NCBI RefSeq assembly: GCF_054482595.1
Contig: NZ_CM137008.1
Direction: 5' to 3' (one strand)
DNA length: 64,000 bases
The position numbers and the translations under genes were made by a program. Below, piece by piece: positions 3,021 to 34,002 of this stretch. The notes under the pieces are model-generated. The model worked only from the letters and a program-made list of their open reading frames with translations. It ran no database searches and was not told where the DNA came from. Positions within the stretch are counted from its first letter, which is position 1; each line of letters starts with the position of its first letter.

Positions 3021-3392
3021 TAGGTAAGTTCGTTCGAGAGGGATTTCAAGCAAAAACAATCAATGGCACCCAATAGAAAATATTGGCGATGTGCTCGAAC
3101 GAATAAAGAAGCCCTATGCGCAATCCACACGCTACGATGTTGCAACAACACTCCATCTACTTTTTATTCTCATTCACTAAATGTGGCTGTTCTGGATTCA
3201 TTATTCAAAGTGTGTACAAGATCACATTTAATCACTTCATTACGGTTCAGCATGCTGAACAAAGCATATTTTCCACTATGTAATGCCGATACCATTTATT
3301 CCATGAGCAAGGAGGAGCCATTATGGTTCGCAAAGGGGGTGATGCTGCCAACTTACTGATTTAGTGTATGATGGTGTTTTTGAGGTGCTCCA

Positions 3393-3668
3393 GTGGCTTC
3401 TGTTTCTATCAGCTGTCCCTCCTGTTCAGCTACTGACGGGGTGGTGCGTAACGGCAAAAGCACCGCCGGACATCAGCGCTATCTCTGCTCTCACTGCCGT
3501 AAAACATGGCAACTGCAGTTCACTTACACCGCTTCTCAACCCGGTACGCACCAGAAAATCATTGATATGGCCATGAATGGCGTTGGATGCCGGGCAACAG
3601 CCCGCATTATGGGCGTTGGCCTCAACACGATTTTACGTCACTTAAAAAACTCAGGCCGCAGTCGGTAA
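3393..3668 (+). CDS. insA: IS1 InsA
   Basis: 91-aa product [43 protein letters not shown]... is the canonical IS1 InsA. Confidence 0.95.
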
Positions 3669-4090
3669 CCTCGCGCATACAACCGGGCAGTGACGTCATC
3701 GTCTGCGCGGAAATGGACGAACAGTGGGGCTATGTCGGGGCTAAATCGCGCCAGCGCTGGCTGTTTTACGCGTATGACAGGCTCCGGAAGACGGTTGTTG
3801 CGCACGTATTCGGTGAACGCACTATGGCGACGCTGGGGCGTCTTATGAGGCTGCTGTCACCCTTTGACGTGGTGATATGGATGACGGATGGCTGGCCGCT
3901 GTATGAATCCCGCCTGAAGGGAAAGCTGCACGTAATCAGCAAGCGATATACGCAGCGAATTGAGCGGCATAACCTGAATCTGAGGCAGCACCTGGCACGG
4001 CTGGGACGGAAGTCGCTGTCGTTCTCAAAATCGGTGGAGCTGCATGACAAAGTCATCGGGCATTATCTGAACATAAAACACTATCAATAA
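3587..4090 (+). CDS. insB: IS1 InsB (normally expressed as InsAB' by -1 frameshift)
   Basis: 167-aa product ...[72 protein letters not shown] is canonical IS1 InsB. Confidence 0.9.
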
Positions 4091-4322
4091 GTTGGAGTCA
4101 TTACCGAATCAACCTATGGTGCGGTATGTTTAAGTATGCCGGTATTCAATATGTATAACAGAGTTAACTATGCAATCTCACTTTCTGGCGATCCGGTAAT
4201 TTATTCAGGAAATAAGATAGACAGCTATCTGGAGTTGCTCCGGAAATGCACAGGGCAAATATCATATGGGCTGGGATACAGAAACGAAAATGAACATTTA
4301 CGAAAAGGAAACTGAGGTAATG

Positions 4323-5225
4323 AAAAAATTCAGCGGCATTATTCCACCGGTATCCAGCACGTTTCATCGTGACGGAACCCTTGATAAAAAGGCAATGCGC
4401 GAAGTTGCCGACTTCCTGATTAATAAAGGGGTTGACGGGCTGTTTTATCTGGGTACCGGTGGTGAATTTAGCCAGATGAATACAGCCCAGCGCATGGCGC
4501 TCGCCGAAGAAGCTGTAACCATTGTCGACGGGCGAGTGCCGGTATTGATTGGCATCGGTTCCCCTTCCACTGACGAAGCGGTCAAACTGGCGCAGCATGC
4601 GCAAGCCTGCGGCGCTGATGGTATCGTCGCCATCAACCCCTACTACTGGAAAGTTGCGGCGCGGAATCTTGACGACTACTACCAGCAGATCGCCCGCAGC
4701 GTCACACTGCCGGTGATCCTGTACAACTTTCCGGATCTAACCGGTCAGGACTTAACCCCGGAGACCGTGAAACGTCTGGCACTGCAAAATGAAAATATCG
4801 TCGGCATCAAAGACACCATCGACAGCGTCGGCCATCTGCGCACGATGATCAACACCGTTAAGTCTGTACGTCCGTCATTTTCGGTATTCTGCGGCTTCGA
4901 CGACCATTTACTGAATACCCTGCTGCTGGGCGGCGATGGCGCGATATCCGCCAGCGCTAATTTTGCTCCGGAACTCTCTGTCGGTATCTACCGCGCCTGG
5001 CGCGAGGGCGATCTGGCAACTGCCGCCACCCTGAATAAAAAGCTCCTGCAACTGCCCGCGATTTACGGCCTTGAAACGCCGTTTGTCTCACTGATCAAAT
5101 ACAGCATGCAGTGCGTGGGGTTGCCGGTGGAGACATATTGCCTGCCGCCGATTCTTGACGTCTCAGAAGAAGCCAAAGAAAAAGTCCACGCACTGCTGGC
5201 CGCGCAGGGCATTTTATCGGACTGA
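4323..5225 (+). CDS. yjhH: 2-dehydro-3-deoxy-D-pentonate aldolase (DapA/NAL family), YjhH/YagE-like
   Basis: DapA-family TIM barrel; from MKKFSGIIPPVSSTFHRDGTLDKKAMREV it is near-identical to my recollection of E. coli YjhH; directly followed by the yjhG-like dehydratase. Confidence 0.85.
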   Translation, partial: KKFSGIIPPVSSTFHRDGTLDKKAMREVADFLINKGVDGLFYLGTGGEFSQMNTAQRMALAEEAVTIVDGRVPVLIGIGSPSTDEAVKLAQHAQACGADGIVAINPYYWKVAARNLDDYYQQIARSVTLPVILYNFPDLTGQDLTPETVKRLALQNENIVGIKDTIDSVGHLRTMINTVKSVRPSFSVFCGFDDHLLNTLLLGGDGAISASANFAPELSVGIYRAWREGDLATAATLNKKLLQLPAIYGLETPFVSLIKYSMQCVGLPVETYCLPPILDVSEEAKEKVHALLAAQGILSD

Positions 5226-5235
5226 GGAGAAGATC

Positions 5236-7203
5236 ATGTCTGTTCGCCATATTTTTGCTGACGAAAGTCGCGATATCTACACCGTCAGAACCCACGCCGA
5301 TGGCCCTGACGGAGAACTGCCGCTTACGGCGGAAATGCTCATCAACCGCCCGAGCGGGGATCTGTTCGGGATGACCATGAATGCCGGAATGGGCTGGTCC
5401 CCAGACGAACTGGATCGGGACGGTATTCTACTGCTCAGCACGCTGGGAGGGTTACGCGGGGCAGACGGTAAGCCCATCGCGCTGGCGCTGCACCAGGGTC
5501 ACTACGAGCTGGATATCCAGATGAAAGCGGCCGCGGAGGTCATCAAAGCGAACCGTGTCCTGCCCTATGCCGTGTATGTTTCCGATCCGTGCGACGGACG
5601 AACTCAGGGTACGACGGGTATGTTTGACTCGCTACCGTACCGTAATGACGCCGCCATGGTGATGCGTCGTCTAATCCGCTCTCTGCCCGATGCGAAAGCC
5701 GTCATTGGCGTGGCGAGCTGCGACAAGGGACTTCCGGCCACCATGATGGCACTTGCCGCGCAGCATGACAAAGCGACGGTGCTGGTGCCCGGTGGCGCGA
5801 CGCTACCCGCAAGGGATGGGGAGGATAACGGCAAGGTGCAGACCATCGGCGCCCGCTTCGCCAATGGCGAGTTATCGCTACAGGATGCCCGCCGTGCGGG
5901 TTGTAAAGCCTGCGCCTCCTCCGGCGGCGGCTGTCAATTTCTGGGCACCGCCGGGACATCGCAGGTCGTAGCCGAAGGATTAGGACTGGCCATCCCGCAC
6001 TCAGCACTGGCCCCTTCCGGCGAACCGGTGTGGCAGGAGATAGCCAGAGCCTCCGCGAAGGCGGCGTTGAACTTATGTAAACAAGGCATCACCACCCGGG
6101 AAATACTCACCGATAAAGCGATTGAGAATGCGATGACGGTCCATGCGGCGTTCGGTGGTTCAACAAATCTGTTGCTGCATATTCCGGCGATTGCCCATCA
6201 GGCCGGCTGCCATATTCCAACCGTTGACGACTGGATCCGCATCAACAAGCGGGTGCCCCGACTGGTAAGCGTACTCCCCAATGGTCCGGTTTATCACCCG
6301 ACAGTGAATGCCTTCATGGCGGGAGGTGTGCCGGAGGTGATGCTGCATCTTCGTAGTCTGGGATTGCTGCATGAAGACGTGATGACGGTCACCGGCAGCA
6401 CGCTGAAAGAAAACCTGGACTGGTGGGAGCATTCCGAACGGCGTCAGCGGTTCAAACAGCTTCTGCGCGAACAGGAGCAGATCGATGCCGACGAGGTGAT
6501 CATGTCGCCACAGCGGGCACGGGAGCGCGGCCTGACCTCAACGATCACTTTCCCGGTGGGCAATATTGCCCCGGAAGGGTCGGTTATCAAATCCACCGCC
6601 ATCGATCCCTCGGTGATTGATGATCGGGGCATCTATTACCATAAAGGCGTGGCGAAGGTTTATCTGTCCGAGAAAAGCGCGATTTACGATATCAAGCACG
6701 AGAAGATTAAAGCGGGCGATATTCTGGTCATCATCGGCGTTGGCCCTTCCGGCACCGGGATGGAGGAAACCTACCAGGTCACCAGCGCCCTGAAACATCT
6801 GTCCTATGGCAAGCATGTTTCACTGATCACCGATGCGCGTTTCTCGGGTGTTTCCACGGGAGCCTGTATCGGCCACACAGGGCCAGAAGCACTGGCCGGA
6901 GGGCCAATCGGTAAATTACGCACCGGAGATATTATTGAAATTAAAATTGATTGTCGCGAGCTTCAGGGCGAAGTCAATTTCCTCGGAACCCGTAACGATG
7001 AAACATTACCCTCACGGGAGGAGGCCACCGCAATATTAAACGCCCGACCCAGTCATCAGGATTTACTTCCTGATCCTGAGCTGCCCGATGACACCCGACT
7101 CTGGGCGATGCTCCAGGCGGTAAGCGGCGGGACATGGACGGGTTGTATTTATGATGTAAATAAAATCGGCGCGGCCTTGCGCGATTATATGAATAAGAAC
7201 TGA
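5236..7203 (+). CDS. yjhG: D-xylonate dehydratase (IlvD/EDD family), YjhG/YagF-like
   Basis: IlvD/EDD-family protein starting MSVRHIFADESRDIYTVRTHADGPDGELPL, with CDGRTQG and SCDKG motifs; near-identical to remembered YjhG. Confidence 0.85.
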   Translation: MSVRHIFADESRDIYTVRTHADGPDGELPLTAEMLINRPSGDLFGMTMNAGMGWSPDELDRDGILLLSTLGGLRGADGKPIALALHQGHYELDIQMKAAAEVIKANRVLPYAVYVSDPCDGRTQGTTGMFDSLPYRNDAAMVMRRLIRSLPDAKAVIGVASCDKGLPATMMALAAQHDKATVLVPGGATLPARDGEDNGKVQTIGARFANGELSLQDARRAGCKACASSGGGCQFLGTAGTSQVVAEGLGLAIPHSALAPSGEPVWQEIARASAKAALNLCKQGITTREILTDKAIENAMTVHAAFGGSTNLLLHIPAIAHQAGCHIPTVDDWIRINKRVPRLVSVLPNGPVYHPTVNAFMAGGVPEVMLHLRSLGLLHEDVMTVTGSTLKENLDWWEHSERRQRFKQLLREQEQIDADEVIMSPQRARERGLTSTITFPVGNIAPEGSVIKSTAIDPSVIDDRGIYYHKGVAKVYLSEKSAIYDIKHEKIKAGDILVIIGVGPSGTGMEETYQVTSALKHLSYGKHVSLITDARFSGVSTGACIGHTGPEALAGGPIGKLRTGDIIEIKIDCRELQGEVNFLGTRNDETLPSREEATAILNARPSHQDLLPDPELPDDTRLWAMLQAVSGGTWTGCIYDVNKIGAALRDYMNKN

Positions 7204-7309: not shown

Positions 7310-8659
7310 ATGCCACTAATTATCGTTGTGGCAGGGATTGCTTTACTCCTGCTTTTAACCATAAAAATTAAGCTTAATACGTTTGTTTCGTTAATTATTG
7401 TCTCGATTGCTGTCGCCATCGCCAGTGGTATGGATTTGAGTAAAGTCGTCACCTCAGTCGAATCCGGACTTGGCGGTACGCTGGGCCATATTGGTTTGAT
7501 ATTTGGGTTCGGTGTTATGCTCGGTCGCTTGCTGGCCGATGCGGGGGGGGCGCAGCGAATAGCGCTGACCATGCTGAATTATTTCGGGAAAAATAAACTT
7601 GACTGGGCAGTGGTCTGTTCGGCGTTTATTGTCGGTATCGCACTTTTTTTCGAAGTCGGTTTAATTCTTCTGGTACCTATTTTATTCGCTATTGCCCGTG
7701 AAGCAAAAATATCACCGATGTTTATGTGTGTGCCGATGCTTTCCGGTTTGCTGGTCGCACACGGTTTTTTGCCGCCGCACCCCGGCCCGACAGTAATCGC
7801 CAGAGAATATGGTGCTGATGTAGGATTGGTACTGATATACGGTATCATTGTCGGCATTCCAACCTTTATTCTTTGCGGCCCGGTATTGAATAAATTCTGC
7901 CAGCGCATTATTCCGGAAGCCTTTAAAAAAGAGGGGAATATAGCCTCTCTCGGCGCGACCCGCCGGTTCAGCGAAAGCGAAATGCCTGGCTTTGGGATCA
8001 GTTTTCTCACGGCAATGCTGCCGGTGATCCTGATGGCGGTTGTCACCATCATCCAGATGACTCATGCCAAAAGTGCCGCGGATTCAGGCTTATTCTACAA
8101 CGTGCTACTGTTCTTAGGTAATTCGACGATCGCCATGCTGATTTCACTGCTGTTCGCGATCTATACCATGGGCCTGGGGCGCGGGAAAACAATCCCTGAC
8201 CTGATGGATTCTTGCGGAAAAGCTATCGCGGGTATTGCCGGTCTGCTGCTGATTATCGGTGGTGGTGGTGCATTCAAGCAAGTTCTCATCGACTCTGGCG
8301 TTGGTCAGTATATTTCCACCCTGGTTTCGGGTATGGATATTAACCCGATCCTGATGGCCTGGGGCGTGGCCGCATTCCTGCGTATTTGTCTGGGTTCAGC
8401 CACCGTCGCGGCGATCTCTACCGCCGGTCTGGTCATCCCATTGTTGGCAGTACATCCCAATACCAACCTGGCCTTGATTACGCTGGCTACCGGTGCCGGA
8501 TCCTGTATTTGTTCTCACGTTAACGATGCCAGTTTCTGGATGATTAAAGACTTTTTTGGCCTGACCACCAAAGAAACGCTGTTATCCTGGACGCTGATGT
8601 CCACACTCTTATCCATCAGTGGGCTGATTTTTATTCTGCTCGCCAGCTTAGTTTTATAA
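7310..8659 (+). CDS. yjhF: GntP-family permease (sugar-acid:H+ symporter), YjhF-like
   Basis: 449-aa polytopic membrane protein of the GntP type; position downstream of yjhG matches the K-12 yjhF arrangement. Confidence 0.8.
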
Positions 8660-9005
8660 TCGGGTTCTTGCCAGTGAGCCAACCTGTTGTTCACTGTCCC
8701 CCATAATTTAGTGAGTGACGGCAACCGTCTGCACGGTGACGAATCGCTGGCGATCAAAAAGGGGCGATATTGAACCGTCGATTATGCTTGTTGAGTGTAC
8801 TCTCAGTAATACTGTAAAGCCGGAGCATGTCTCCGGCTTTACAGTATGGGGGAACAGCGGGAGATCGCTCAAATGGTATGCTGGTTTATTTCATGTAAAA
8901 GAATAAAATATCTGTATAAAATCATGCCACTGGCAATCTGCATCAACTCTCCGGGTAAACAGGGTTAAGATGAGCATTTCCCCGGTTTAATACAGGTATA
9001 CAAAA

Positions 9006-9992
9006 GTGGATAGAGATCAAACAAACAGCAGCCTGTTCAATGATGATCCCGTACTTCATGCAACATGGCTGTACTATCAGGAAGGCAAAAGCCAGACTGA
9101 AGTTGCAGCTATCATGGGGGTGTCCCGCGTCACGGTTGTCAAATACCTGCAAACAGCCCGGGAAAATGGACTGGTTCATATCAACCTGGATGTGAATGTC
9201 TTTGGCTCTATCGACGCTGCTTTGCAAATTCGCGATAAATTCAATCTCCTGAGAGTGATCATCGTGCCGGATGGCGAACATGCCGGAAAACGTGATGATA
9301 CAAAGCTGATGCGGACTCGCCTTTCACGTGCCGGTGGCATGTATCTGAATCAGGTGATTGAGAATGGTGATGTGCTGGGGGTTGCCTGGGGAAGAACAAT
9401 CCATCAGATGAGCAAAACCATGACGCCGAAGTCATGTAAAAATGTCACCGTTATACAGATGCTCGGTTCCATGCCATCTCAGCCAGACCTGACGATCATT
9501 GAATCCTCATCGCAAATCGCCTACAAGCTTTCAGGCCGTGTCGCTTCGCTGCACGTGCCCGCCGTGGTATCAAGCGCCAGACTGGCCATGGAGTTACAGG
9601 CAGAGCCTATTATTCGATCGAATTTTGACGTTCTGACTCGCTGTACGAAAGCCTTTTTTGTCGTGGGTAACACGCTTGATGAAAATCCCCTGATTCGGGT
9701 GGGCGTGCTGAATAAGAAGGAAATGCAGACGTATCGAGATTTAGGCGCAGTAGGTGTCATTTGTGGCCGCTTCTATGACAAGGAAGGGATGCCCGTCGTG
9801 GCTGATGTTGACCAGCGTATTCTGGGAATCAGTCTGGCTCAGTTAAGGCAGATTGAACGGAAGATCTTTCTTGCTGGTGGCGAAAGAGGCTATGACGCAA
9901 CGTTGGGTGCCTTGCTGGGAGGATATGTCACTGACCTGATTGTTGATGAAGGAACGGCAGAGTTTTTGCTGGCGTGTGAATTACCACACTAA
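9006..9992 (+). CDS. yjhU: SorC/DeoR-like sugar-binding transcriptional regulator, YjhU-like
   Basis: N-terminal HTH (SQTEVAAIMGVSRVTVVKYLQTARENGLV) followed by a SorC-type sugar-phosphate-binding domain; GTG start as given by the ORF track; position after yjhF matches K-12 yjhU. Confidence 0.7.
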   Translation: MDRDQTNSSLFNDDPVLHATWLYYQEGKSQTEVAAIMGVSRVTVVKYLQTARENGLVHINLDVNVFGSIDAALQIRDKFNLLRVIIVPDGEHAGKRDDTKLMRTRLSRAGGMYLNQVIENGDVLGVAWGRTIHQMSKTMTPKSCKNVTVIQMLGSMPSQPDLTIIESSSQIAYKLSGRVASLHVPAVVSSARLAMELQAEPIIRSNFDVLTRCTKAFFVVGNTLDENPLIRVGVLNKKEMQTYRDLGAVGVICGRFYDKEGMPVVADVDQRILGISLAQLRQIERKIFLAGGERGYDATLGALLGGYVTDLIVDEGTAEFLLACELPH

Positions 9993-10004
9993 AAGAATGA
10001 ACAA

Positions 10005-10028
10005 CTGCCCCATGTGGATATGGGGCAG
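10005..10028. terminator. Bidirectional hairpin between convergent yjhU-like and permease genes
   Basis: Perfect 9-bp inverted repeat CTGCCCCAT-gtggat-ATGGGGCAG followed by a T-rich tract, between two convergent stop codons. Confidence 0.6.
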
Positions 10029-10032
10029 GATT

Positions 10033-11037
10033 TTATTGATTAGCGGCGATAATAAGAACAATACCCACAATGTATGAAATAAACATAGTCAGCAGCAGTT
10101 TATTGGTTCCGGCTGGCGCACTGGCAAATTCTCTCCAGATGAAGACTCCCCAGATCACGGCAATCATTGTGGCACCCTGTCCCAGACCGTAGGAAATGGC
10201 ATAACCCGCCTGACCAGACGCAATCAAACTGAATGCCAGACCGACACACCAAATCATACCGCCCAGCCAGCCGCAAACATGATCCCGTAAACTCCCGGAA
10301 AAATACATTTTCCTGTAGACCGGTTCTCCTGAAATAGGCTTTTTCATGACCAGCGTGTTAAGGACAAAGTTCGACAAAAACAGCCCCACTGCAAACAGAA
10401 CAAGTGCTGAGTACGGCGTCATCAGACCGCTGGCAGGCTGGCTGAAATTGTCAGACATGGAGTCCGCCAGGAAGCGGAAAAACCATCCCATGATGATACC
10501 CGCAAGAATGGCAGTGATGAGGCCTTTGTTACGGCGAGATTTATCCGCCTCCTGCGTGACACGGCCATAGGCTATCGCGGTAAAAATAATGGCGATCACA
10601 ACGCAGGCGACACCGAGGAACAGAATGAGCGGATCGCCCTGCGGATTGCCGATATAGGTGGTGATCACACCCAGAGCCAGTGCCAGCCCCACCCCCACAG
10701 GAAAAGCTACCGCCATACCGGCAAGATTAATAGAAGCCACCAGAAGAATATTGGAAATATTGAAGATAATCCCTGCCAGTATTGCCGACATCAGACTACT
10801 GCTGCTCGCCTGCTGAATATCAGGTATAAAGCTGCGACCGGCTTCGCCCATAGAACCCAGAGTGAAGGCAAATAACAAAGAACACAGCAATAATCCAATT
10901 GAATAATCCCAATAGAATAGAGGGAACTCCCATTTTTTATTACTGACAAGTTTAGTTGTATTCGCCCATGAACCCCAGCAAATCATGGTAATAAAACACA
11001 TTATTATGGCGACAGCATACGATTCCACGATAAACAT
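10033..11037 (-). CDS. Sugar permease (DMT superfamily, RhaT/GlcU-like); candidate 5-deoxyribose/methylthioribose importer of the DHAP shunt cluster
   Basis: 334-aa membrane protein with ~10 transmembrane segments in two repeated halves; last gene of the mtnK-mtnA-ald2 operon on the minus strand. Confidence 0.65.
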   Translation of the reverse strand: MFIVESYAVAIIMCFITMICWGSWANTTKLVSNKKWEFPLFYWDYSIGLLLCSLLFAFTLGSMGEAGRSFIPDIQQASSSSLMSAILAGIIFNISNILLVASINLAGMAVAFPVGVGLALALGVITTYIGNPQGDPLILFLGVACVVIAIIFTAIAYGRVTQEADKSRRNKGLITAILAGIIMGWFFRFLADSMSDNFSQPASGLMTPYSALVLFAVGLFLSNFVLNTLVMKKPISGEPVYRKMYFSGSLRDHVCGWLGGMIWCVGLAFSLIASGQAGYAISYGLGQGATMIAVIWGVFIWREFASAPAGTNKLLLTMFISYIVGIVLIIAANQ

Positions 11038-11140
11038 AAATAACTCCTTGTGGTAGTTACAATCAATCGTTGTGGACAGAGGGCATAACAGCCATTCCTC
11101 GAATGGCTGTTATATGTTATTAATTAAAATAAAGCTGTAA

Positions 11141-11782
11141 TTACGCTTTCAAACCATACGTTTTGAATTTTTCAAGAACGATGGTCATTTCGGCTTCAGA
11201 CAGAACGGGAACATCGTGATGTAATCCGCCACATTTGATGTATAAATCAGCCAGCGTCTCAGTTTCACCCGCCAGCCACAACGTCTTTTCCAGCGTGACG
11301 TCCATGGCCAGCATACCGTGGTGCTGCATCAGTAAGGACTTACTTTCTCTGATTCCTTGAGATACACTGTCGGCCAGTTCAGGGCTGCCAAAGGTATAAT
11401 AGGGAATACAGGGAATATGATCCGTCCCCGATACCGCCACCATATAATGAATAGCCGGAATTGAATGATTATGTATTGCCACCGCCGTGGAATTCACCGC
11501 ATGCGTATGTATGACAGCATTCAATTCTGGTCTGGCTTTATAACACGCCAGATGAAATAGCCATTCACTTGATGGTATTTTACCCGCTTCAGGTATTCCC
11601 TTATCGTCTACAAAGACAATCATGTCCGGCGTCATCTTTGAATAAGCGATCCCACTCGGTGTAATCAACATGCCACCGGTATATCTGGCACTCACATTAC
11701 CTGATGTTCCTTGATTCAGACCTGACGCATTCATTTCCCGACAAATGGAAATGATATTTTCTGCTAACTTAATCCTTTCCAT
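11141..11782 (-). CDS. ald2: Class II aldolase (fuculose-1-P aldolase family); 5-deoxyribulose-1-P / 5-methylthioribulose-1-P aldolase of the DHAP shunt
   Basis: 213-aa class II aldolase/adducin-fold protein with metal-binding His motifs (HTHAVNSTAVA...QHHG); directly downstream of mtnA and mtnK homologues. Confidence 0.8.
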   Translation of the reverse strand: MERIKLAENIISICREMNASGLNQGTSGNVSARYTGGMLITPSGIAYSKMTPDMIVFVDDKGIPEAGKIPSSEWLFHLACYKARPELNAVIHTHAVNSTAVAIHNHSIPAIHYMVAVSGTDHIPCIPYYTFGSPELADSVSQGIRESKSLLMQHHGMLAMDVTLEKTLWLAGETETLADLYIKCGGLHHDVPVLSEAEMTIVLEKFKTYGLKA

Positions 11783-11812
11783 TACTGCTCCTTAACAGAA
11801 GTGATCGTCGTT

Positions 11813-12928
11813 TTAATGCAGCTCGTCCTGGAGTGCTTTACTCTTCAGGTCAGCAAACATATCCGCCAGAGCTGACTTACTGGCAGCACAGACTCCCCGT
11901 TCAGTAATGAGGCCGGTAATGTATCGGGCAGGCGTGACGTCGAAAGCGTAGTTCCCACAACGGGTTCCTTCAGGGGCGGTATTGACCCAGCTCAATTCTC
12001 CCTGAGTATTTATCCCATAGACATGGGACTGCTCTTTTCCGTCACGTTGCTCAATCGGAATGGTTTTTCCGTCCTCGATAGTCCAGTCAATAGTGGGAGA
12101 AGGTAACGCGACGTAGAAGGGAACATGGTTATCATGGGCCGCCAGCGCCTTAAGATAGGTACCAATTTTATTACAGACATCCCCTCTGGCCGTGGTTCGA
12201 TCGGTCCCCACTATACAGAGATCAACGTCACCGTGTTGCATCAGGTGGCCACCCGCATTGTCGGCAATCAGGGTGTGAGGAATACCGTGTGAACCCAGTT
12301 CAAATGCCGTGAGTCCACCCTGATTACGTGGCCGCGTTTCATCCACCCAGACGTGAACAGGGATTCCGTTTTCATGCGCTTTATAGATGGGAGAAAGCGC
12401 GGTTCCCCAGTCTACAGTCGCCAGCCAGCCTGCGTTACAATGTGTCAGGATATTGACCACACTCCCGGCCGATTTTTTCTGGGCTATTTCGCGGATGACT
12501 TCTGCACCATGTAATCCAATTTGTTCACACAACGCGACATCTTCCTCGGCAATTTCTGCCGCCAGCGCCCAGGCCACATCCTTGCGCTCTGATACACAGA
12601 GATCCTTCAGTGTGGCTATCATCCTGTCGAGAGCCCATTTGAGGTTAATTGCAGTTGGTCGGGTTTTGATAAGAAGGTCATAGTAACGCTGCAGACCTAC
12701 GTCACTGGCATTGTGGTTCATTCCCAGTGCGATACCATATGCCGCAACGACACCAATAAGCGGGGCGCCACGAACCCACATCTCCTGAATAGCCGCAGCG
12801 GCCATTTCCGCAGAGGTAAGCGCCACCACTTCAAACTTAAAAGGCAGCTTAGTCTGATCGATGATCTCTACCGCTTTTCCATCCCCGGAAACCCAGACCG
12901 TTCGGTAGTGTTTACCTTTAATATTCAT
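11813..12928 (-). CDS. mtnA: 5-methylthioribose-1-phosphate (5-deoxyribose-1-P) isomerase
   Basis: 371-aa eIF-2B alpha/beta/delta-family protein ([39 protein letters not shown]) typical of MtnA. Confidence 0.85.
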
Positions 12929-12937
12929 AATGACCTC

Positions 12938-14197
12938 TTACTTAACCTTCGCAGACTGGATGACGGAGTCCATATTTTTAAACTGGCGGGCATTGACAAT
13001 AAGATCGCGCGCCATGGTCAATGCACGTCGTTCACATTCTGCGCGAAGCTCTGTATTTTCAATCTGTTTCAGCTCGGCAACGCCAGCAAAACCAATGATC
13101 CGGCGATTCATTTCCATGCCGGCATTCACCAGGGAATCTTCAAGCAGCGTGGCAAAAAACTGATCCTGTGCGTCCTCAAGAGCGGCCCTGTTCTGTTGAT
13201 ACATTTCTGTCGGCCACGCGTCACCCTGTGTTTTGTTGTCCCAGAGCTGGCGGAACTCCCGGGTGAAAACTGACCAGGTGTGGACAATCTGCTGAAGTAG
13301 CCATTCCTGATAGTCAGCGCGACGTTGCTCATTTGCATCCCACCCAGGGCGTGAGAAGAACGCCAGCAGGAGGTTGCCAATATAGTTGCCGATATCAAAC
13401 GCCATTGGTCCCATGAAACCGAACTCCGGATCAATCACTTTGGTATCCGTGTCGGTCACCATGATTGAGCCTGAATGAAGGTCACCATGTAACAATGCCT
13501 GCGCTTCTGTCATAAATTTGTACTTATAACGCATGGCAACCTGGAGCATCTCTACATCAGCCCAGGCCTTATGGACGGCATCGTCCAGCTCAGGAGAAGT
13601 CCAGTTATTCCGTTCCGCGTTGTAATAGGGCTCTGTGAAGATCAGATCTTCCGTAATTTTGCACAGCTCATGATTTAACGCGAACTCAGCAGTAAGCGCT
13701 TTTTTCTGTTCTGCTGACATGCCAATGTCAGACGTATTAAAGAGAGTCTGTGCTAAAAATCTGCCGATATCTTCAGCTAGCTTAGGGAATTTTTTACCGT
13801 TAATCAGTCCCTTACGCAGAATTACGTGAGGCGTCAAATACTCCATGGCAAACAGTGCCATTTCCGGGTCATAAAAATAGACCTGGGGAATCAGTGTGTG
13901 ACCCGCGTACTTGGCTTCCTGACATAAGACGTTGTACTCAAAGCCCGCACGGCTCAGAGATAAAGGCCATCCTTCGCCCCCTGCACGAAGCCAGGGCAGA
14001 GCTTGTTTTACAATGATGGTTTTATGTGTCCCCTTAACGATAAACACCATGTTCAGGTTTCCGTCCCCCACTTCTGAAACTTTCCACTCTTCTGGTAACC
14101 CTCCCGGTTCGCATGAAGGGGTCAGTCTGGACGAGAGATAACCAGGCAGCGTGTCACATGTCAGCGGCTTGTAACCTGATGGAATTGAATCCGTCAT
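12938..14197 (-). CDS. mtnK: 5-methylthioribose / 5-deoxyribose kinase
   Basis: 419-aa protein-kinase-like fold with MtnK hallmarks (EVGDGNLNMVF, HGDLHSGSIMV, KVIDPEFGFMGP). Confidence 0.85.
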   Translation of the reverse strand: MTDSIPSGYKPLTCDTLPGYLSSRLTPSCEPGGLPEEWKVSEVGDGNLNMVFIVKGTHKTIIVKQALPWLRAGGEGWPLSLSRAGFEYNVLCQEAKYAGHTLIPQVYFYDPEMALFAMEYLTPHVILRKGLINGKKFPKLAEDIGRFLAQTLFNTSDIGMSAEQKKALTAEFALNHELCKITEDLIFTEPYYNAERNNWTSPELDDAVHKAWADVEMLQVAMRYKYKFMTEAQALLHGDLHSGSIMVTDTDTKVIDPEFGFMGPMAFDIGNYIGNLLLAFFSRPGWDANEQRRADYQEWLLQQIVHTWSVFTREFRQLWDNKTQGDAWPTEMYQQNRAALEDAQDQFFATLLEDSLVNAGMEMNRRIIGFAGVAELKQIENTELRAECERRALTMARDLIVNARQFKNMDSVIQSAKVK

Positions 14198-14711
14198 AAC
14201 AGTTCTCCTTGTCTACACAGAATGATAACTGACTTATCATATGGCAACTATACTTTATCATGTGTAAAGTAATTTGTGATGCATGTAGATTTTTTGAACT
14301 GGAGAAAATTAAAAATAATGTTGTATGGAGTCATGATCTTTACAGGAATTAGTAGGGTGCATTCCTGTTATTTATATAAAATTCATTGTATTACATAAAA
14401 ATGACGGTGCTGCGCGGGGAATTGTCTCGGGCAATCTTAGACGAAAGGAAGTATTGAAGTGACAGAATAATCTACATTTTTTATACATGTGTATTTTTCT
14501 GTTGTCTTTTGTTTTTAGCGTATGGTGTTTTTATGCCGATGTCTAATAGACAGATAGATTCGAGGGCCAACAGCCCCATTATCATGATGGAGCAACAGAG
14601 GTGAGTCTAACGTTTCCGTACTTCTTATCGATCGGCACTAACAATCCTTTGTGATAACGGTATTCCCACACAGAGAAACCCACGTACCTGAATAAAAAAA
14701 AGATTACTGGT

Positions 14712-15130
14712 GTGGAAATGGGATTAACAGATTATGCCATCAAATCGGATGGTAATGAGGTCAATAATCCTCGTCATCTCATTAACGTCAACTGTAATCT
14801 GCGACGCAAATTAGCCAGCATGATGAATAACAAACACAATCTGGCAAGAGCGTTAGGTGATGCTGATTGGCACGGCTTTATCAACAAACTGGAGTACAAG
14901 GCAGCCGAAAAAGGCGTTCATCTGGTAAAAATCGACCAGTAGTTTGTCTGTTCGAAAAGCTGCTATTGTTGTGGTTACAAAATGTCGCTTCAAAAACGGA
15001 TCTGGCGATGCCCTGAATGCGGTGTTGAACATGACCGGGATATAAATGCGGCAATCAACATAAAACTTAAAGACATACAGGAATTAAAGGCGGCGGGCCC
15101 CGTCGTCTCTGTCTATGGAGGAGCTGCGTA
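14712..15130 (+). pseudogene. tnpB: IS200/IS605-family TnpB C-terminal remnant with an in-frame TAG stop
   Basis: Single reading frame gives ...AEKGVHLVKIDQ*FVCSKSCYCCGYKMSLQKRIWRCPECGVEHDRDINAAINIKL...; the zinc-finger and RuvC-III region of TnpB is present, the N-terminal ~2/3 is absent, and there is an in-frame TAG at 14940-14942. Confidence 0.7.
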
Positions 15131-15395
15131 AACCCGTCGTACAGACGGTTGCAGCCTGAAAAGTGGGAAGGCCTTGCCCGATTGGGCGGGGAGTAGTCAC
15201 CCTTGGAGTCATTTTTATCCGGTGTATTAATATGCTCCTAATAGTTAATCTGGTTATAATATTTTTTTTTTGATTATGATCACGAAAATATCTCGGTTTT
15301 TATTTGCAAAACTTGAAACGTGAATCCAAAAAAGATAAATATTTGTCCGCAGTGACTTCTTTTCTGTTGAAAAGTTCAATCTAAAGGGCAAAAAA

Positions 15396-16508
15396 ATGAA
15401 AAAAATTACAGTGGCACTTTCTGTGGTTGCGGCATCTGTTCTGATGGCAATGTCTGCACAAGCGGCAGAAATCTATAACAAAGACGGTAACAAACTGGAT
15501 CTGTACGGCAAAGTTAATGCAGAGCATTACTTCTCTTCTTCAGCTAGTGATGACGGGGATAAAACTTATGCTCGTATGGGTTTCAAAGGTGAAACTCAGA
15601 TTAATGACCAGTTAACCGGTTTTGGTCAGTGGGAGTACGAATTTAAAGGTAACCGTACTGAAACTGAAGGTTCTGATAAAGATAAAACTCGTCTTGCGTT
15701 TGCAGGGCTTCGCTTTGGCGATTATGGTTCGCTCGACTATGGTCGCAACTACGGTGTAGCTTATGATGTTGGCGCTTGGACTGACGTGCTGCCGGAGTTT
15801 GGTGGAGATACCTGGACTCAGACTGATGTATTTATGACCCAGCGTGCTACTGGCGTAGCGACCTATCGTAACAATGATTTCTTCGGCTTGGTTGATGGTC
15901 TGAACTTTGCTTTGCAGTATCAAGGTAAAAATGATAGTGCTGCAAAAGTGAATAACTGGAAAGGCCGTGACGAAGTTGAATCTAATGGTGATGGCTTTGG
16001 TCTGTCAGCTACTTACGATTATGAGGGATTTGGCGTTGCTGCAACCTATGCAAAATCTGACCGTACTGATGGGCAGGTATCCTATGCTAAAGACAGCCCT
16101 CTGAATGCCTCTGGTAAAACTGCTGAAGTATGGGCTACGGGCCTGAAATATGATGCAAACAACATTTACCTGGCTGCAACTTATTCTGAAACTCAGAATA
16201 TGACAGTCTTCGGTGATGACCATATCGCAAACAAAGCGAAAAACTTTGAAGCTGTTGCTCAATACCAGTTTGATTTCGGCTTGCGTCCGTCCATCGCTTA
16301 CCTACACTCTCGCGGTGAAAATATTGGTGCGTTCGGTAACCAGGATCTAGTTGAATACATCGACGTAGGTGCGACTTATTACTTCAACAAAAATATGTCC
16401 GCTTTCGTTGACTACAAGATCAACCTGATTGATGAAAGTGAATTTACCAAAGCATCTGAGGTTGCAACCGACAACATCGTTGCTGTTGGTATGACCTACC
16501 AATTCTAA
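15396..16508 (+). CDS. Outer-membrane general porin, OmpC/OmpF/PhoE family paralogue
   Basis: Signal peptide followed by [17 protein letters not shown], conserved porin motifs ([25 protein letters not shown]) and C-terminal ...VAVGMTYQF; a Rho-independent terminator follows. Confidence 0.9.
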
Positions 16509-16742: not shown

Positions 16743-17975
16743 ACGTAATGTGGACACGGCCCTAAGCGAGATTATGGTTTTCAAATTGTTCCGGGCTGAG
16801 ACCGCCACAGGCACTGTGACGACGCCAGCGATTGTAATCACACTCGATATAATTAAACACCGTTGCCCGCATTATTTCCCGGCTGCTAAAGCGTTCCCCG
16901 TGGATACATTCCACCTTCAGCGAATGAAAGAAGCTTTCCACACAGGCATTGTCATAACAGTAGCCTTTCGCACTCATACTGCCACGCAGGTTGTGTCGCT
17001 TCAGCAGCGCCTGATAATCCCCTGAACAGTATTGACCACCACGGTCCGTATGAACAATGACGCTTTCCGGGCGTCTTCTCCGCCACAACGCCATTTGCAG
17101 TGCATCACAGGCCAGTTGTGCTGTCATTCGCGGTGACATCGACCAGCCAATGACGGCGCGTGACCACAGGTCGATGACTACTGCGAGATACAACCAGCCC
17201 TCATCGGTACGCAAGTACGTGATGTCACCCGCCCACTTCTGGTTCGGGCCACTGGCGCTGAAGTCCTGCTCCAGCAGATTCTCCAATACGGGCAGACCAT
17301 GTGCACGGTAGCTGACCGGGCTGAACTTCCGGCTGGCTTTCGCCCGCAGCCCCTGACGACGCAGGCTGGCGGCAATGGTTTTAATATTGAACTCCGGCAG
17401 TTCGTCAGCAAGGCGGGGATCACCGTATCGCTGCTTTGCCTCAAAGAATGCCTTATGGACAGCGGCATCGCAGGTGAGCCGAAACTGTTGGCGCAGGCTC
17501 ATCTGGTGACGACGCCTGAGCCAGACATACCAGCCGCTGCGGGCAACCCGAAGTACACGACACATCGCTTTGATGCTGAACTCTGCCCGATGATTTTCGA
17601 TGAAGACATACTTCATTTCAGGCGCTTCGCGAAGTATGTCGCGGCCTTTTGGAGGATGGCCAGTTCCTCAGCCTGCTCCGCCAGTTGTCGTTTAAGGCGG
17701 ACATTTTCAGCGGCCAGTTCGCTTTCGCGCTCTGACGAACTCATTTGTTGCTGCTGTTTACTGCGCCAGGCATAAAGCTGAGATTCATACAGGCTGAGTT
17801 CACGGGCTGCGGCGGCCACACCGATGCGTTCAGCGAGTTTCAGGGCTTCGTTACGAAATTCAGGCGTATGTTGTTTACGGGGTTTCTTGCTGATTGATAC
17901 TGGTTTTGTCATGAGTCACCTCTGGTTGAGAGTTTACTCACTTAGTCCTGTGTCCACTATTGGTGGGTAAGATCA
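16743..17975 (-). mobile_element. IS3-family insertion sequence (IS3-like), ~1.23 kb, orfA/orfB with overlapping frames
   Basis: Terminal inverted repeats TGATCCTACCCACGTAATGTGGACAC (left) and GTGGACACAGGACTAAGTGAGTAAACT...TGATC (right, reverse strand); OrfA (17613-17912) is IS3 InsE-like and OrfB (16762-17616) has the DDE integrase core; the two ORFs overlap as expected for a -1 frameshift. Confidence 0.9.
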
Positions 17976-25839: not shown

Positions 25840-26162
25840 TCATATATGGCAAACTGTAATACAGTCTCTTGTACTGAAAAGGATTCTGTATAGAATAGAA
25901 CCTGTATTCATATCAGCACAAGGGACCACCAAATCCCGGCAACATTCCTTACGTCAGTTATCCCGCATCACCCTGTGGGTGCGGGATTTTTTATGATGTT
26001 TCTTTTTATTGAATATATATAAATAACGAATAACTGCGGATTCTGATAATCCACCTGCAGGGAGCAATCCGGTAAACATTTAATACATCAGTTAATATCG
26101 TTTTGCCTTTTTAACAAAGAAAATATTCATGGAGTAAGTTCCCGGGCATTTGCCCGGGATGA

Positions 26163-27428
26163 TTACTGTTTTAATGGATTATTAATCTTTGCATATTCAA
26201 ATGGACTGATAAATTTTTCTCTGTTTGCATCCAGAAAATCGGCCCACCATTGTAGCATCAAGCGGCGTTCTTCCAGATGCTCTGCTTTATGAATGTAAGC
26301 AGCACGTACACCGTTACGTTCCTGATGGCTCATCTGACGTTCCACAGCATCGCGGGACCACAAACCTGATTCAATCAATGCACTGCACGCCATCGCCCGG
26401 AATCCATGGCCACAGACTTCCTGGGTTGTGTCATACCCCATCACCCTCAGGGCTTTATTTACAGTATTTTCACTGATTGGTTTACGCGGGTCATGTGCAC
26501 CCGTAAATATCAGACCATTTTCACCTGCCCATGTCTGAAGTTCTGTCAGTATGGCTACAGCCTGTTTGCTGAGTGGCACAAGATGTGGTGTTCGCATCTT
26601 GGAGCCCCGGTGTGAGAATTTTACGCCTGGCAGAGGTTCGCGTTCGGCTGGAATAGTCCACTTGGCATTGTCAATATCAATTTCAGACCAGCGGGCATAT
26701 CTGAGTTCACTGGAACGAATAAAAACCAGTAAATTCAGCATAACTGCCAGTCGGGTGACAGGCTGGCCTTTATAACCGTCAATACGCGACAGAAGTTCAG
26801 GCAAGCGTGAAAGATCCAGAGCAGGGCGATGCTGGCGTTTTACCGTGGTCAATGCACCAGCCATATCCAGAGCCGGGTTATATCTGATGATGCCTGACTG
26901 TACGGCATAACGCATTACAGCAGATATTCTTTGCTGCAGACGACTGGCGATTTCATAAATTTGTTTTGCTTCTGCAGCACGAACAGGGATAAGCAGATCC
27001 GGGGTATTGAGTGTTGTGATATCCCGGTTGCCGATAAAGGGGAAAACGTGTGTCTCGAGGCTTTTGAGTACTTTATCGCTGTGTGATTGTGCCCATTGTT
27101 TATTACTGGCATGCCAGCGTCGTGCAATATGTTCAAAAGAGAGCTGTAAATCAGGGACAACTTTTTTAACTCTTTTCTGTTCGCAAGGGTCAATCCCTTC
27201 TGAAATCAGTTTTCGGGCCTCATCCCGTTTTGTACGAGCTTCGGAGAGAGAAACTTCTGGATACACACCAAGTGCCAGAGTCTTCTCCTTACCCAGAATA
27301 CGATAACGGAGACGCCAGTAACGGGAACCATTAGGATGAACCAGCAGGAACATGCCGGCCCCGTCAGTGAGTTTATAAGCCTTGTCAGTGGGCTTTGCAG
27401 CCCGGATTTTTGCGTCAGTCAGTGCCAT
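26163..27428 (-). CDS. int: Tyrosine site-specific integrase, P4-type (island integrase)
   Basis: 421-aa protein with the P4-integrase N-terminus MALTDAKIRAAKPTDKAYKLTDGAGMFLLVHPNGSRYWRLRY and the C-terminal catalytic domain; lies ~200 bp from the 3' end of tRNA-Phe. Confidence 0.95.
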   Translation of the reverse strand: MALTDAKIRAAKPTDKAYKLTDGAGMFLLVHPNGSRYWRLRYRILGKEKTLALGVYPEVSLSEARTKRDEARKLISEGIDPCEQKRVKKVVPDLQLSFEHIARRWHASNKQWAQSHSDKVLKSLETHVFPFIGNRDITTLNTPDLLIPVRAAEAKQIYEIASRLQQRISAVMRYAVQSGIIRYNPALDMAGALTTVKRQHRPALDLSRLPELLSRIDGYKGQPVTRLAVMLNLLVFIRSSELRYARWSEIDIDNAKWTIPAEREPLPGVKFSHRGSKMRTPHLVPLSKQAVAILTELQTWAGENGLIFTGAHDPRKPISENTVNKALRVMGYDTTQEVCGHGFRAMACSALIESGLWSRDAVERQMSHQERNGVRAAYIHKAEHLEERRLMLQWWADFLDANREKFISPFEYAKINNPLKQ

Positions 27429-27625
27429 AGTTCAGCCTTCTGAATGCGTTAAAGAGGGTACAAATTCTGTCGAACTGGGGTATACCCGCAATTATACCCA
27501 CACAATGAGGTTGATGTGGGGGGAATCTGGTTGAGTTCGGTAGAATTGATTTGGAGGCAGAACGCTTAAATTGTGGCGTTCTGAAACGAAAAACGGACCT
27601 CCGTGGAGGTCCGTTGATATGAATT

Positions 27626-27701
27626 TGGTGCCCGGACTCGGAATCGAACCAAGGACACGGGGATTTTCAATCCCCTGCTCTACCGACTGAGCTATCCGGG
27701 C
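27626..27701 (-). tRNA. pheV: tRNA-Phe (GAA)
   Basis: Reverse complement reads GCCCGGATAGCTCAGTCGGTAGAGCAGGGGATTGAAAATCCCCGTGTCCTTGGTTCGATTCCGAGTCCGGGCACCA, which is E. coli tRNA-Phe with CCA end. Confidence 0.97.
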
Positions 27702-27806
27702 AACGGGGCGCATTAAACCTGATTCGCCTCGTCTCGTCAATCAAATTTCTTCAATTTACTGCAGACTGCACAATCTATCATCACTTTGCCGCTATTGCAC
27801 GCATTG

Positions 27807-28514
27807 TCAGGCAAACCAGGCGGTCCAGGCGGCGGAAAGCGGCATTGCCAGAAGGAGTGCTGGAAGCATGTTGACCACCGGGAACATTTTAATGCCACAG
27901 ATGCGTAATCCGGTTGCCAGCAGCAATAAACCGCCTACGGCGCTGAAGTCTGCCATCATCGACGGTGTGGTCAGCGGTAATATCAGCGTGGCAGCCCACG
28001 CCAGCGTTAACTGGATGATCAGTAATGGGATACTAATCACCGATACCGCAATACCCAGCGAGCAGGCGAAGATCATCGCCGTAAAGAAATCAAGAAATGA
28101 CTTGGCGATTAAAATACTCGGATCGCCGGTCATCCCTTCGTTCATCGCCCCGAAGATCCCGGTGCCGCTGGCGCAAAACAGGACAATAATCGCGACATAA
28201 TTCTGAATAAAAGATTCATGCGCTGGCTTCTTACGTGAGTGACGAAACAGATTTTGTGCTTTGGCGACCGCTGTATTGACGCCTTTCTCCAGCAGACAAA
28301 TTTCGCCGATTAATGCTCCGAGTAAGGTTGCTAAAACCATCGCCGGAAGGTTGGCGCATTTCACCACCAGTAAAATACCAATCCCCAGCGATGCCAGACC
28401 AAAAATTGATGTCATGGAGACGCGGATACGTTCCGGTAAGCGTTGGCTAAGCAGTGCACCGAGCATGCCACCCAGTAATATTGCACTTGCGTTGATAAAA
28501 GGGCCGATGACCAC
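27807..28514 (-). CDS. yqgA: DUF554 inner-membrane protein YqgA
   Basis: 235-aa membrane protein; matches K-12 YqgA and its position next to pheV. Confidence 0.9.
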   Translation of the reverse strand: MVIGPFINASAILLGGMLGALLSQRLPERIRVSMTSIFGLASLGIGILLVVKCANLPAMVLATLLGALIGEICLLEKGVNTAVAKAQNLFRHSRKKPAHESFIQNYVAIIVLFCASGTGIFGAMNEGMTGDPSILIAKSFLDFFTAMIFACSLGIAVSVISIPLLIIQLTLAWAATLILPLTTPSMMADFSAVGGLLLLATGLRICGIKMFPVVNMLPALLLAMPLSAAWTAWFA

Positions 28515-28912
28515 AAGAGTTCCTGTTAACTGTATTGTTTGATTTTCTTATTATGAACTTTTTGCCTTGTTGATGGCTTGTCTAGTCGCAAAGTCCTGGC
28601 TTGCACGCCTTAGCGAAAGGTGCCATGATTGCGCGAATTTTCTCCTCTCTGTACGGAGTTTGCCCGATGCACGCCATCTCCTTACATTCTCTCGCTTATC
28701 GCCGTTTCGCGCGAAACCCTTCTCTTTTTATGCTACTGCTCATGCGGTGAAGTTAACGCACGTTCACTGCAGGACAACAGTAAAATCAGAGCGTTTCTGC
28801 TTTTACTGATGTCTGGCGGTCGGAGCTGGTGACCAGTTTGACCCATATCTCATGGGGCAGGGTTTTACACCTTGTCCGGTATTCTTACTTCCCCGAAACG
28901 GGTTTTGCGCTT

Positions 28913-31048: not shown

Positions 31049-31052
31049 GAAT

Positions 31053-31089
31053 AAAAAAAACGGGTCGCCTTCTGGCGACCCGTTTTTCT
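31053..31089. terminator. Bidirectional Rho-independent terminator between speC and nupG
   Basis: AAAAAAAA-CGGGTCGCC-ttct-GGCGACCCG-TTTTTC. Confidence 0.8.
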
Positions 31090-31097
31090 TTGCGTAA

Positions 31098-32357: not shown

Positions 32358-32555
32358 AATTTCCTCACATCGTGATGCGGATGAGTGTTTGAAAAAGCAC
32401 ATTTGACCGTGCGAGATGATGGGATTCTATCAACTTCGCGGACTGGTTTTTTGTTACCTGTGGCAAATAATTGCAAACATTCCCAATTTGCAAAACGAAA
32501 TTGTGATGTGGATAACATTTTTGCCCCTGAGCATCGTCAGGGGCGGTTAATGGAA

Positions 32556-33662
<1,107 letters not shown>

Positions 33663-33699
33663 TTAAGCAAGCTGCCGGAGGCGTGCTCCGGCACTGTTT

Positions 33700-33978
<279 letters not shown>

Positions 33979-34002
33979 TCATCCTCTTTATCGACTCACG
34001 CG

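Follow-up and report, generated by a model that had tools for sequence, protein, structure and literature searches.

Organization of the locus

The window analyzed here, a 64,000-nucleotide stretch of contig NZ_CM137008.1 from NCBI RefSeq assembly GCF_054482595.1, carries four minus-strand open reading frames (ORFs) at positions 10033–14197 that, together with a convergent regulator gene, very probably constitute a dihydroxyacetone phosphate (DHAP) shunt module of the Escherichia coli type. ORFs were taken from a list with translations, and protein families were assigned from NCBIfam profile scores evaluated against the curated cut-offs. The four ORFs share one direction and are real genes, not chance ORFs. 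The first of them, mtnK (12938–14197, 419 amino acids), is assigned as a 5-methylthioribose/5-deoxyribose kinase with a score of 521 bits on TIGR01767 (cut-off 275). It is followed after 9 bp by mtnA (11813–12928, 371 amino acids), an isomerase of 5-methylthioribose-1-phosphate and 5-deoxyribose-1-phosphate that scored 411 bits on TIGR00512 (cut-off 279), and after a further 30 bp by ald2 (11141–11782, 213 amino acids), a class II aldolase of the FucA family predicted to act on 5-deoxyribulose-1-phosphate and 5-methylthioribulose-1-phosphate (NF005984, 361 bits, cut-off 264). A spacer of 103 bp separates ald2 from the last gene of the operon, which encodes a putative GRP/DMT-family sugar permease (10033–11037, 334 amino acids) with weak profile matches.

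The regulator gene mtnR (yjhU; 9006–9992, plus strand, 328 amino acids), assigned as a SorC/DeoR-type repressor of the operon, is located 40 bp past the permease gene, beyond a G+C-rich bidirectional terminator hairpin at 10005–10028 that was called on both strands and has a stem of 9–10 bp with 6 G-C pairs (RNA fold −16.6 kcal/mol, z = −3.4). A second hairpin, with a perfect stem of 13–14 bp and no U tract, is found on the minus strand at 11085–11113 in the spacer between ald2 and the permease gene. The promoter and 5' region, also on the minus strand, spans 14198–14646. This arrangement, with mtnK-mtnA-ald2-permease in one direction and mtnR convergent, matches the E. coli-type DHAP shunt operon. 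A first-pass annotation of the window had proposed an operon of four minus-strand genes at 10033–14197, and these bounds are identical to the outer bounds in the ORF list; the range is accurate for the four genes and leaves out the regulator and the promoter (14198 to about 14646). A search against Rfam over 8600–15500 gave no hit at E ≤ 1 to the cluster or its surroundings. On this basis known RNA elements upstream of mtnK were rejected, riboswitches of the kind of the Bacillus mtnK S-box among them.

Identity to the characterized operon of ATCC 25922

The operon was compared with that of E. coli ATCC 25922 (NZ_CP009072.1, mtnK at 2,553,781), the strain in which the pathway was characterized. 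MtnK, MtnA and Ald2 were 98.6%, 97.0% and 98.1% identical to WP_000132325.1, WP_001022015.1 and WP_000439686.1, respectively, the permease was 99.1% identical to its counterpart and MtnR was 99.4% identical to YjhU (WP_000373366.1). The two substitutions in MtnR, Q82L and A223T, both fall outside the N-terminal helix-turn-helix, to which profiles matched at residues 21–57. In strain SE15 the accessions of MtnK, MtnA, Ald2 and YjhU are the same as those in ATCC 25922. Gene lengths, gene order and spacers are equal in the window and ATCC 25922, mtnR is convergent in both, no internal stops were found and the genes yjhF-yjhG-yjhH-yjhI-sgcR follow beyond mtnR in both. The operon coding sequences are 96.4–97.9% identical in nucleotides, and the differing codons of the four operon genes divide into 79 synonymous and 24 non-synonymous, a split that has the pattern of purifying selection. 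The MtnK motifs GDGNLN, HGDLHSGS and IDPEF align with the solved 5-methylthioribose kinases 2PYW and 2OLC. For MtnA, the motifs THCNAG and VGTDR could be aligned to solved structures, the Cys and Asp motifs being retained.

These comparisons bear out the DHAP shunt identity proposed in the first-pass annotation, given that the three enzymes are 97.0–98.6% identical to characterized ones (PMC10986504, PMC12632272), and lead us to estimate a probability of about 90% that the segment 9006–14646 is a complete and intact E. coli-type DHAP shunt module. The copy in the window is a rare allele, roughly 97% identical to the characterized operon. The claim that the operon is absent from K-12 was likewise upheld, as yjhU there directly adjoins IS1F and no operon is present. 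The system itself is already known and well characterized, and the exact allele is contained in public genomes and in a supplementary table of the authors who described the operon.

Predicted pathway

Huening et al. 2024 reported that mtnK, mtnA and ald2 enable ATCC 25922 to grow on 5'-deoxyadenosine, 5'-methylthioadenosine (MTA) and 5-deoxyribose, and that the three genes in trans give K-12 the same growth, during aerobic or trimethylamine N-oxide respiration (PMC10986504). Applied to the window, the scheme from ATCC 25922 would begin with the housekeeping nucleosidase Pfs, encoded elsewhere, which would release 5-deoxyribose and 5-methylthioribose from 5'-deoxyadenosine and MTA. MtnK would then phosphorylate these sugars at C1, MtnA would isomerize the 1-phosphates to ribulose-1-phosphates and Ald2 would split the latter into DHAP, which would pass to glycolysis, as well as either acetaldehyde or 2-(methylthio)acetaldehyde. 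Under aerobic conditions the aldehydes would be reduced to ethanol and 2-methylthioethanol. The putative permease presumably imports 5-deoxypentoses, and transcription would be repressed by the convergent MtnR and activated by cAMP-CRP. The role of the pathway in E. coli would be the use of by-products of S-adenosylmethionine as a source of carbon and energy during respiration, not sulfur salvage or detoxification. By analogy with ATCC 25922, the strain can very probably use 5'-deoxyadenosine, MTA and their sugars as carbon sources. The first-pass annotation had regarded the fate of the aldehydes in E. coli as open; it was in fact published in 2024, acetaldehyde being converted to ethanol aerobically and, through AdhE, to a mix of acetate, acetaldehyde and ethanol anaerobically, with 2-methylthioethanol as the aerobic product of the methylthio branch (PMC10986504).

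Classical methionine salvage, after which MtnK and MtnA are named, starts with these two enzymes, so that the cluster could in principle be the front end of a route by which the methylthio group of MTA is returned to methionine. That route would call for further enzymes, and MtnB, MtnC, MtnD, the enolase-phosphatase and the dioxygenase are not annotated across the island in identical relatives. Ald2, the only protein of the class II aldolase fold, scored 66 bits on the MtnB model TIGR03328, for which the cut-off is 137. Furthermore, MTA sulfur is not recycled to methionine in ATCC 25922 and accumulates as 2-methylthioethanol (PMC10986504). Methionine salvage is accordingly a highly improbable function for the cluster.

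A role mainly in the disposal of 5-deoxyribose, as in Bacillus thuringiensis, is also very unlikely, if not to the same degree. The drdK-drdI-drdA genes of that organism encode a kinase, an isomerase and a class II aldolase that yield DHAP and acetaldehyde by the same chemistry, with the kinase and isomerase belonging to the MtnK and MtnA families (Beaudoin 2018, PMC6079011). They differ from the operon described here in that their role is the disposal of a toxic by-product, in the absence of a GRP permease and MtnR and in an aldolase of a distant lineage. No detoxifying role was seen in ATCC 25922, but growth on 5'-deoxyadenosine, MTA and 5-deoxyribose was demonstrated, and the operon is under catabolite repression, as catabolic operons are. 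The DHAP shunts of Rhodospirillum rubrum and Rhodopseudomonas palustris, as described, follow the same logic and yield DHAP with (2-methylthio)acetaldehyde or acetaldehyde, while serving sulfur salvage with constitutive low-level expression (PMC12632272).

Assignment of the aldolase

A rival to the DHAP shunt reading takes the aldolase for a second L-fuculose-1-phosphate aldolase in a cluster for 6-deoxyhexose catabolism. The closest solved structure to Ald2 is E. coli FucA, matched over the full length at 270 bits and 58% identity, as compared to only 118 bits for DrdA of B. thuringiensis. Structures 6BTD and 6BTG are available for the latter, and 6BTD, the one compared here, is DrdA (PMC6079011). 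PGAP labels the protein L-fuculose-phosphate aldolase, and the broader subfamily model NF005984 is passed. Thirteen active-site positions of FucA were checked, of which N29, G44, S71, S72, E73, H92, H94, Y113, F131, H155, F206 and Y209 are kept in Ald2 and T43 is replaced by serine. Among these we take H92, H94 and H155 to be the metal ligands, with E73, Y113, F131 and F206 listed alongside; all are conserved.

On the FucA equivalog model TIGR01086, however, Ald2 scored 314.7, below the cut-off of 400.25, and its gene neighbors are mtnA and the GRP permease gene (with mtnK next to mtnA) and not fucPIK or fucO. Since percent identity fails to separate Ald2 from FucA, gene context and a tree were used instead. 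A scan of species-representative genomes returned 80 loci, and in 23 of these the aldolase gene lies directly downstream in the order mtnK-mtnA-ald2. The linked loci belong to Citrobacter, Providencia, Klebsiella sp., Morganella, Xenorhabdus, Vibrio, Aliivibrio and Testudinibacter. In a neighbor-joining tree, computed without bootstrap, the 23 linked aldolases and Ald2 of the window formed one clade with E. coli FucA and the context-free aldolases outside, which is suggestive of a separate clade of mtnK-mtnA-linked aldolases. The T43 to serine exchange extends to this whole clade; changes typical of the clade relative to FucA are A27S and T43S, which are invariant, and I150L, L152M and R212K, each in 22 of 24 members. 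Three aldolases from Vibrio and Photobacterium without mtnK-mtnA are 63–65% identical.

Gene context tells Ald2 from FucA, whereas similarity at the level of the family is insufficient. The first-pass annotation had named a grouping of the aldolase with FucA/RhaD, in combination with a lack of growth on 5-deoxypentoses, as grounds for rejecting the pathway. Ald2 does belong to the FucA family, but the grouping is uninformative because the 98.1% identical orthologue of this FucA-like aldolase is proven Ald2, being part of the gene set that enables K-12 to grow on 5-deoxyribose. Of the functions considered for the cluster we deem fuculose phosphate cleavage the least credible, and Ald2 is retained as the aldolase of the DHAP shunt. 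The label FucA given by annotation pipelines conceals this pathway.

Permease and intercistronic hairpin

The permease gave partial Pfam matches to Sugar_transport (PF06800, E = 1.9e-6) and Ureide_permease (PF07168, E = 2.5e-10) and a score of 30 bits on the RhaT model, for which the cut-off is 369; RefSeq names it a GRP family sugar transporter. Taken together, the weak RhaT, GRP and ureide-permease matches fit a sugar porter of the DMT superfamily. In ATCC 25922 the permease gene is co-transcribed with those of the enzymes (PMC12632272). A point against its being an essential part of the pathway is that the permease was unnecessary for growth of K-12 on 5-deoxyribose once mtnK-mtnA-ald2 were supplied, with 5-deoxyribose a candidate substrate (PMC10986504). 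The first-pass designation of a DMT-type sugar permease is compatible with the profiles and with the place of the gene in the operon; its transport role is presumptive.

The hairpin at 11085–11113 preceding the permease gene has a z-score of −3.9. Its core stem, CAGCCATT/AATGGCTG, does not vary among E. coli, Citrobacter and Providencia, in contrast to the loop. By way of processing, stability or attenuation of the transcript, the hairpin may determine how much permease is made relative to the enzymes.

Divergence of the promoter region

Huening et al. 2025 found that the four genes in ATCC 25922 form one operon transcribed from a regulated promoter, P1, and a weak promoter, P2, that YjhU, renamed MtnR, represses the operon and that CRP is required and binds the promoter (PMC12632272). 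P1 was placed in the interval 66–126 bp by lacZ fusions; P2 is given as both 188 and 218 (PMC12632272). Homology of the window to the leuX-type 799-bp upstream region ends at 14646, 449 bp from mtnK, and the remainder of the canonical region is replaced by a TnpB pseudogene followed by an OmpC-type porin gene. The pseudogene, TnpB/InsQ with a frameshift, lies at ~14641–15159, between the porin gene and the operon, and marks the break in homology. The porin gene at 15396–16508 (NF007841, 532 bits) is an extra member of the OmpC subfamily that the island bears directly upstream of the operon.

Several features of the retained 449 bp weigh against a module that is intact in its regulation. Within the 130 bp proximal to mtnK, 112 positions (86%) are identical to ATCC 25922, which is below every coding part (96.4–97.9%), and identity further upstream is 85–89%. 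A consensus promoter scan of ATCC 25922 identified two overlapping sense-strand promoters in the P1 interval, TTCAAA-18-AATAAT and GTGTCA-17-GATAAT, with the AATAAT hexamer ending at −72, whereas the same scan of the window returned no promoter-like site on the sense strand. Both candidate −10 hexamers have lost the final T, AATAAT reading AATTAC at 14274–14269 and GATAAT reading GATAAA at 14259–14254. In the window CAAAT...ATTTG, a semi-palindrome put forward as the operator for MtnR (PMC12632272), reads CAAAT...ACATG, so that its right arm is broken.

Three substitutions unique to this allele fall within a single 21-bp block, TTTACATTTGATAATGTATAG. ATCC 25922 and two Citrobacter species share this block without change, and Providencia departs from it at two positions; the three substitutions, which are those that alter the two hexamers and the semi-palindrome, are derived and lie between the conserved TCACA half-site for CRP and the conserved TATAGT. 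The clusters of Citrobacter (sp. On2M and C. amalonaticus) and Providencia rettgeri resemble the operon of the window in the five genes mtnK-mtnA-ald2-permease-mtnR, the intercistronic hairpin and the promoter core. Apart from species and flanks, they differ from it in having kept the canonical GATAAT and ATTTG that the window allele has lost.

Other elements of the promoter core are retained. They comprise a CRP right half-site, TCACA, at 14279–14275, TTTACA at 14267–14262, TATAGT at 14252–14247 and a partial palindrome at 14247–14234. The footprint 14234–14279 was compared across loci L006, L008–L010, L012, L013 and L017. The distance from TCACA to TATAGT is 22 nt in the window, in Citrobacter and in Providencia, and 21 nt in Xenorhabdus (L017). 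The palindrome downstream in this footprint reads TTGTCA-CA-TGACAA in ATCC 25922, TTTGCA-TA-TGTAAA in Providencia and TTGCCA-TA-TGATAA in the window. The palindrome at 14247–14234 is an alternative candidate for the MtnR operator and does not coincide with that put forward in PMC12632272.

Based on these differences, the genes could form a DHAP shunt whose pheV-borne allele is abnormally expressed, being silent, weak or free of repression by MtnR, through its mutated promoter and operator core, in which case the phenotype of ATCC 25922 would not be conferred. The clustering of the allele-unique substitutions in an otherwise conserved block, the loss of both scan promoters and the broken semi-palindrome point in this direction, as does Dataset S2 of the operon's authors, in which this class of genomes ("348-799") has a 5' region 84% identical and an operon 97.17% identical. 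On the other side, TCACA, TTTACA and TATAGT, whose conservation reaches deepest across genera, are still present, the four ORFs are intact with mostly synonymous codon differences and 12 genomes of strains from several hosts have maintained the allele. The published transcription start numbers, moreover, map ambiguously onto the promoter elements, as the value of −35.5 suits the conserved TCACA only if GATAAT is the −10 element. We consider abnormal expression rather unlikely, and the reading of an intact DHAP shunt module is kept.

A real difference in the regulation of the allele is considered less likely than not. As a tentative possibility, the allele may be a natural regulatory variant whose expression is silent, weak, initiated from a shifted start or without repression by MtnR. 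If so, it would be a ready-made mutant for locating the MtnR operator. With its divergent promoter, this rare allele lends itself to a natural test of the binding sites of MtnR and RNA polymerase.

Genomic location and frequency

The only tRNA gene in the window is a tRNA-Phe at 27626–27701 (minus strand, called by ARAGORN). Its outer flank is yqgA-speC-nupG-mltC and on this account it was identified as pheV, at which the operon-bearing island is attached. On its inner side lies the island integrase (26163–27428, minus strand, 421 amino acids), a tyrosine recombinase that scored 252 bits on the integrase domain model NF007246 and has the same annotation in strain 4FM. The operon is located ~13.4 kb from pheV on the integrase side, in agreement with the pheV island assigned in the first-pass annotation, while in ATCC 25922 it occupies the end of the leuX island. 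The cluster has been published as being "invariably" at the leuX island end (PMC10986504, PMC12632272). The leuX-linked context was observed in ATCC 25922 and SE15, and K-12 has the same neighbor genes there without the operon. No paper linking mtnK with pheV was found in the literature searched. A second copy of the pheV 3' end was not found in the window, which thus has no internal attachment repeat of this end by which the region could be divided into tandem islands. Accessory DNA in strain 4FM, whose arrangement is the same, extends more than 85 kb past the position of the window start.

The frequency of the operon was determined in 5,426 complete E. coli genomes, with carriage defined as at least 80% coverage of the operon segment. 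The operon was present in 1,084 genomes (about 20%) and mtnR in 1,601; roughly 500 genomes, K-12 included, thus have the repressor gene as an orphan. A count of 1,597 matching genomes as carriers of the operon was rejected because 93 bp of mtnR formed part of the query. To date the trait has been associated with extraintestinal pathogenic lineages. This allele, together with the junction of mtnK, TnpB pseudogene and porin gene, was found in exactly 12 genomes, so that pheV is the exception among the 1,084 operon carriers. Seven of the 12 are already included in one coverage class of Dataset S2 of the operon's authors, with their location uncommented.

The tRNA-side junction is listed for eight of the 12 genomes. 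4FM has pheV with the yqgA flank at this junction, and in five others the island end abuts tRNA-Phe; in the remaining two (Santai and CM188746) the island end meets the 3' part of the tRNA alone, with another element beyond it. The operon and mtnR are single-copy in each of the 12 genomes and the block has therefore moved and was not duplicated. The operon moved together with the neighboring sgcR-yjhIHGF-mtnR block into the pheV-integrated island. A plasmid origin was dismissed, the four PLSDB matches being chromosome-sized or fragmentary records of the canonical allele. The DHAP shunt module is not tied to the leuX island, and the statement that it is always at leuX needs a footnote. Both the position at pheV and the changes in the promoter core amount to modest variations on the known system and not to a discovery.

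Origin and further content of the island

Nucleotide identity to the Citrobacter clusters is 93.6% over 5.2 kb and to that of Providencia about 73–76%. The window and ATCC 25922 alleles are approximately equidistant from the Citrobacter clusters, at about 90–97% per 300-bp window over the operon and mtnR, and are 93–99.7% identical to each other in the coding part. Within the transferred block, yjhG and yjhH (4320–7203) are 86.4% and 91.4% identical in nucleotides to ATCC 25922/SE15, as compared to 98.7% for yjhF and 99.0% for mtnR. The block is in view of this much greater divergence of yjhG and yjhH a recombination mosaic.

The island DNA (1–25000) is 100% identical to that of 4FM, Santai, SM107 and GTEN_97, isolated from mink, duck and humans. 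The adjacent core (26000–34000) shares only 98.4% identity with 4FM and no more than 99.1% with any complete genome, which suggests that the island was exchanged recently between different backgrounds.

A 768-bp IS1 at 3338–4105 (InsB ORF 3587–4090) has taken the place of 564 bp in yjhI, a gene for an IclR-type regulator. Santai is without this IS1 and is otherwise 100% identical on both sides, from which it follows that the insertion is recent and private to the source strain. Between the porin gene and the integrase, a copy of ISEc16 (IS3 family) is located at about 16762–17912. Genes in the segment 18245–25839 code for an MFS transporter together with a PepT-like peptidase and for an NhaC-type antiporter accompanied by a PatB-family C-S lyase; the segment also holds a phosphoethanolamine transferase pseudogene.

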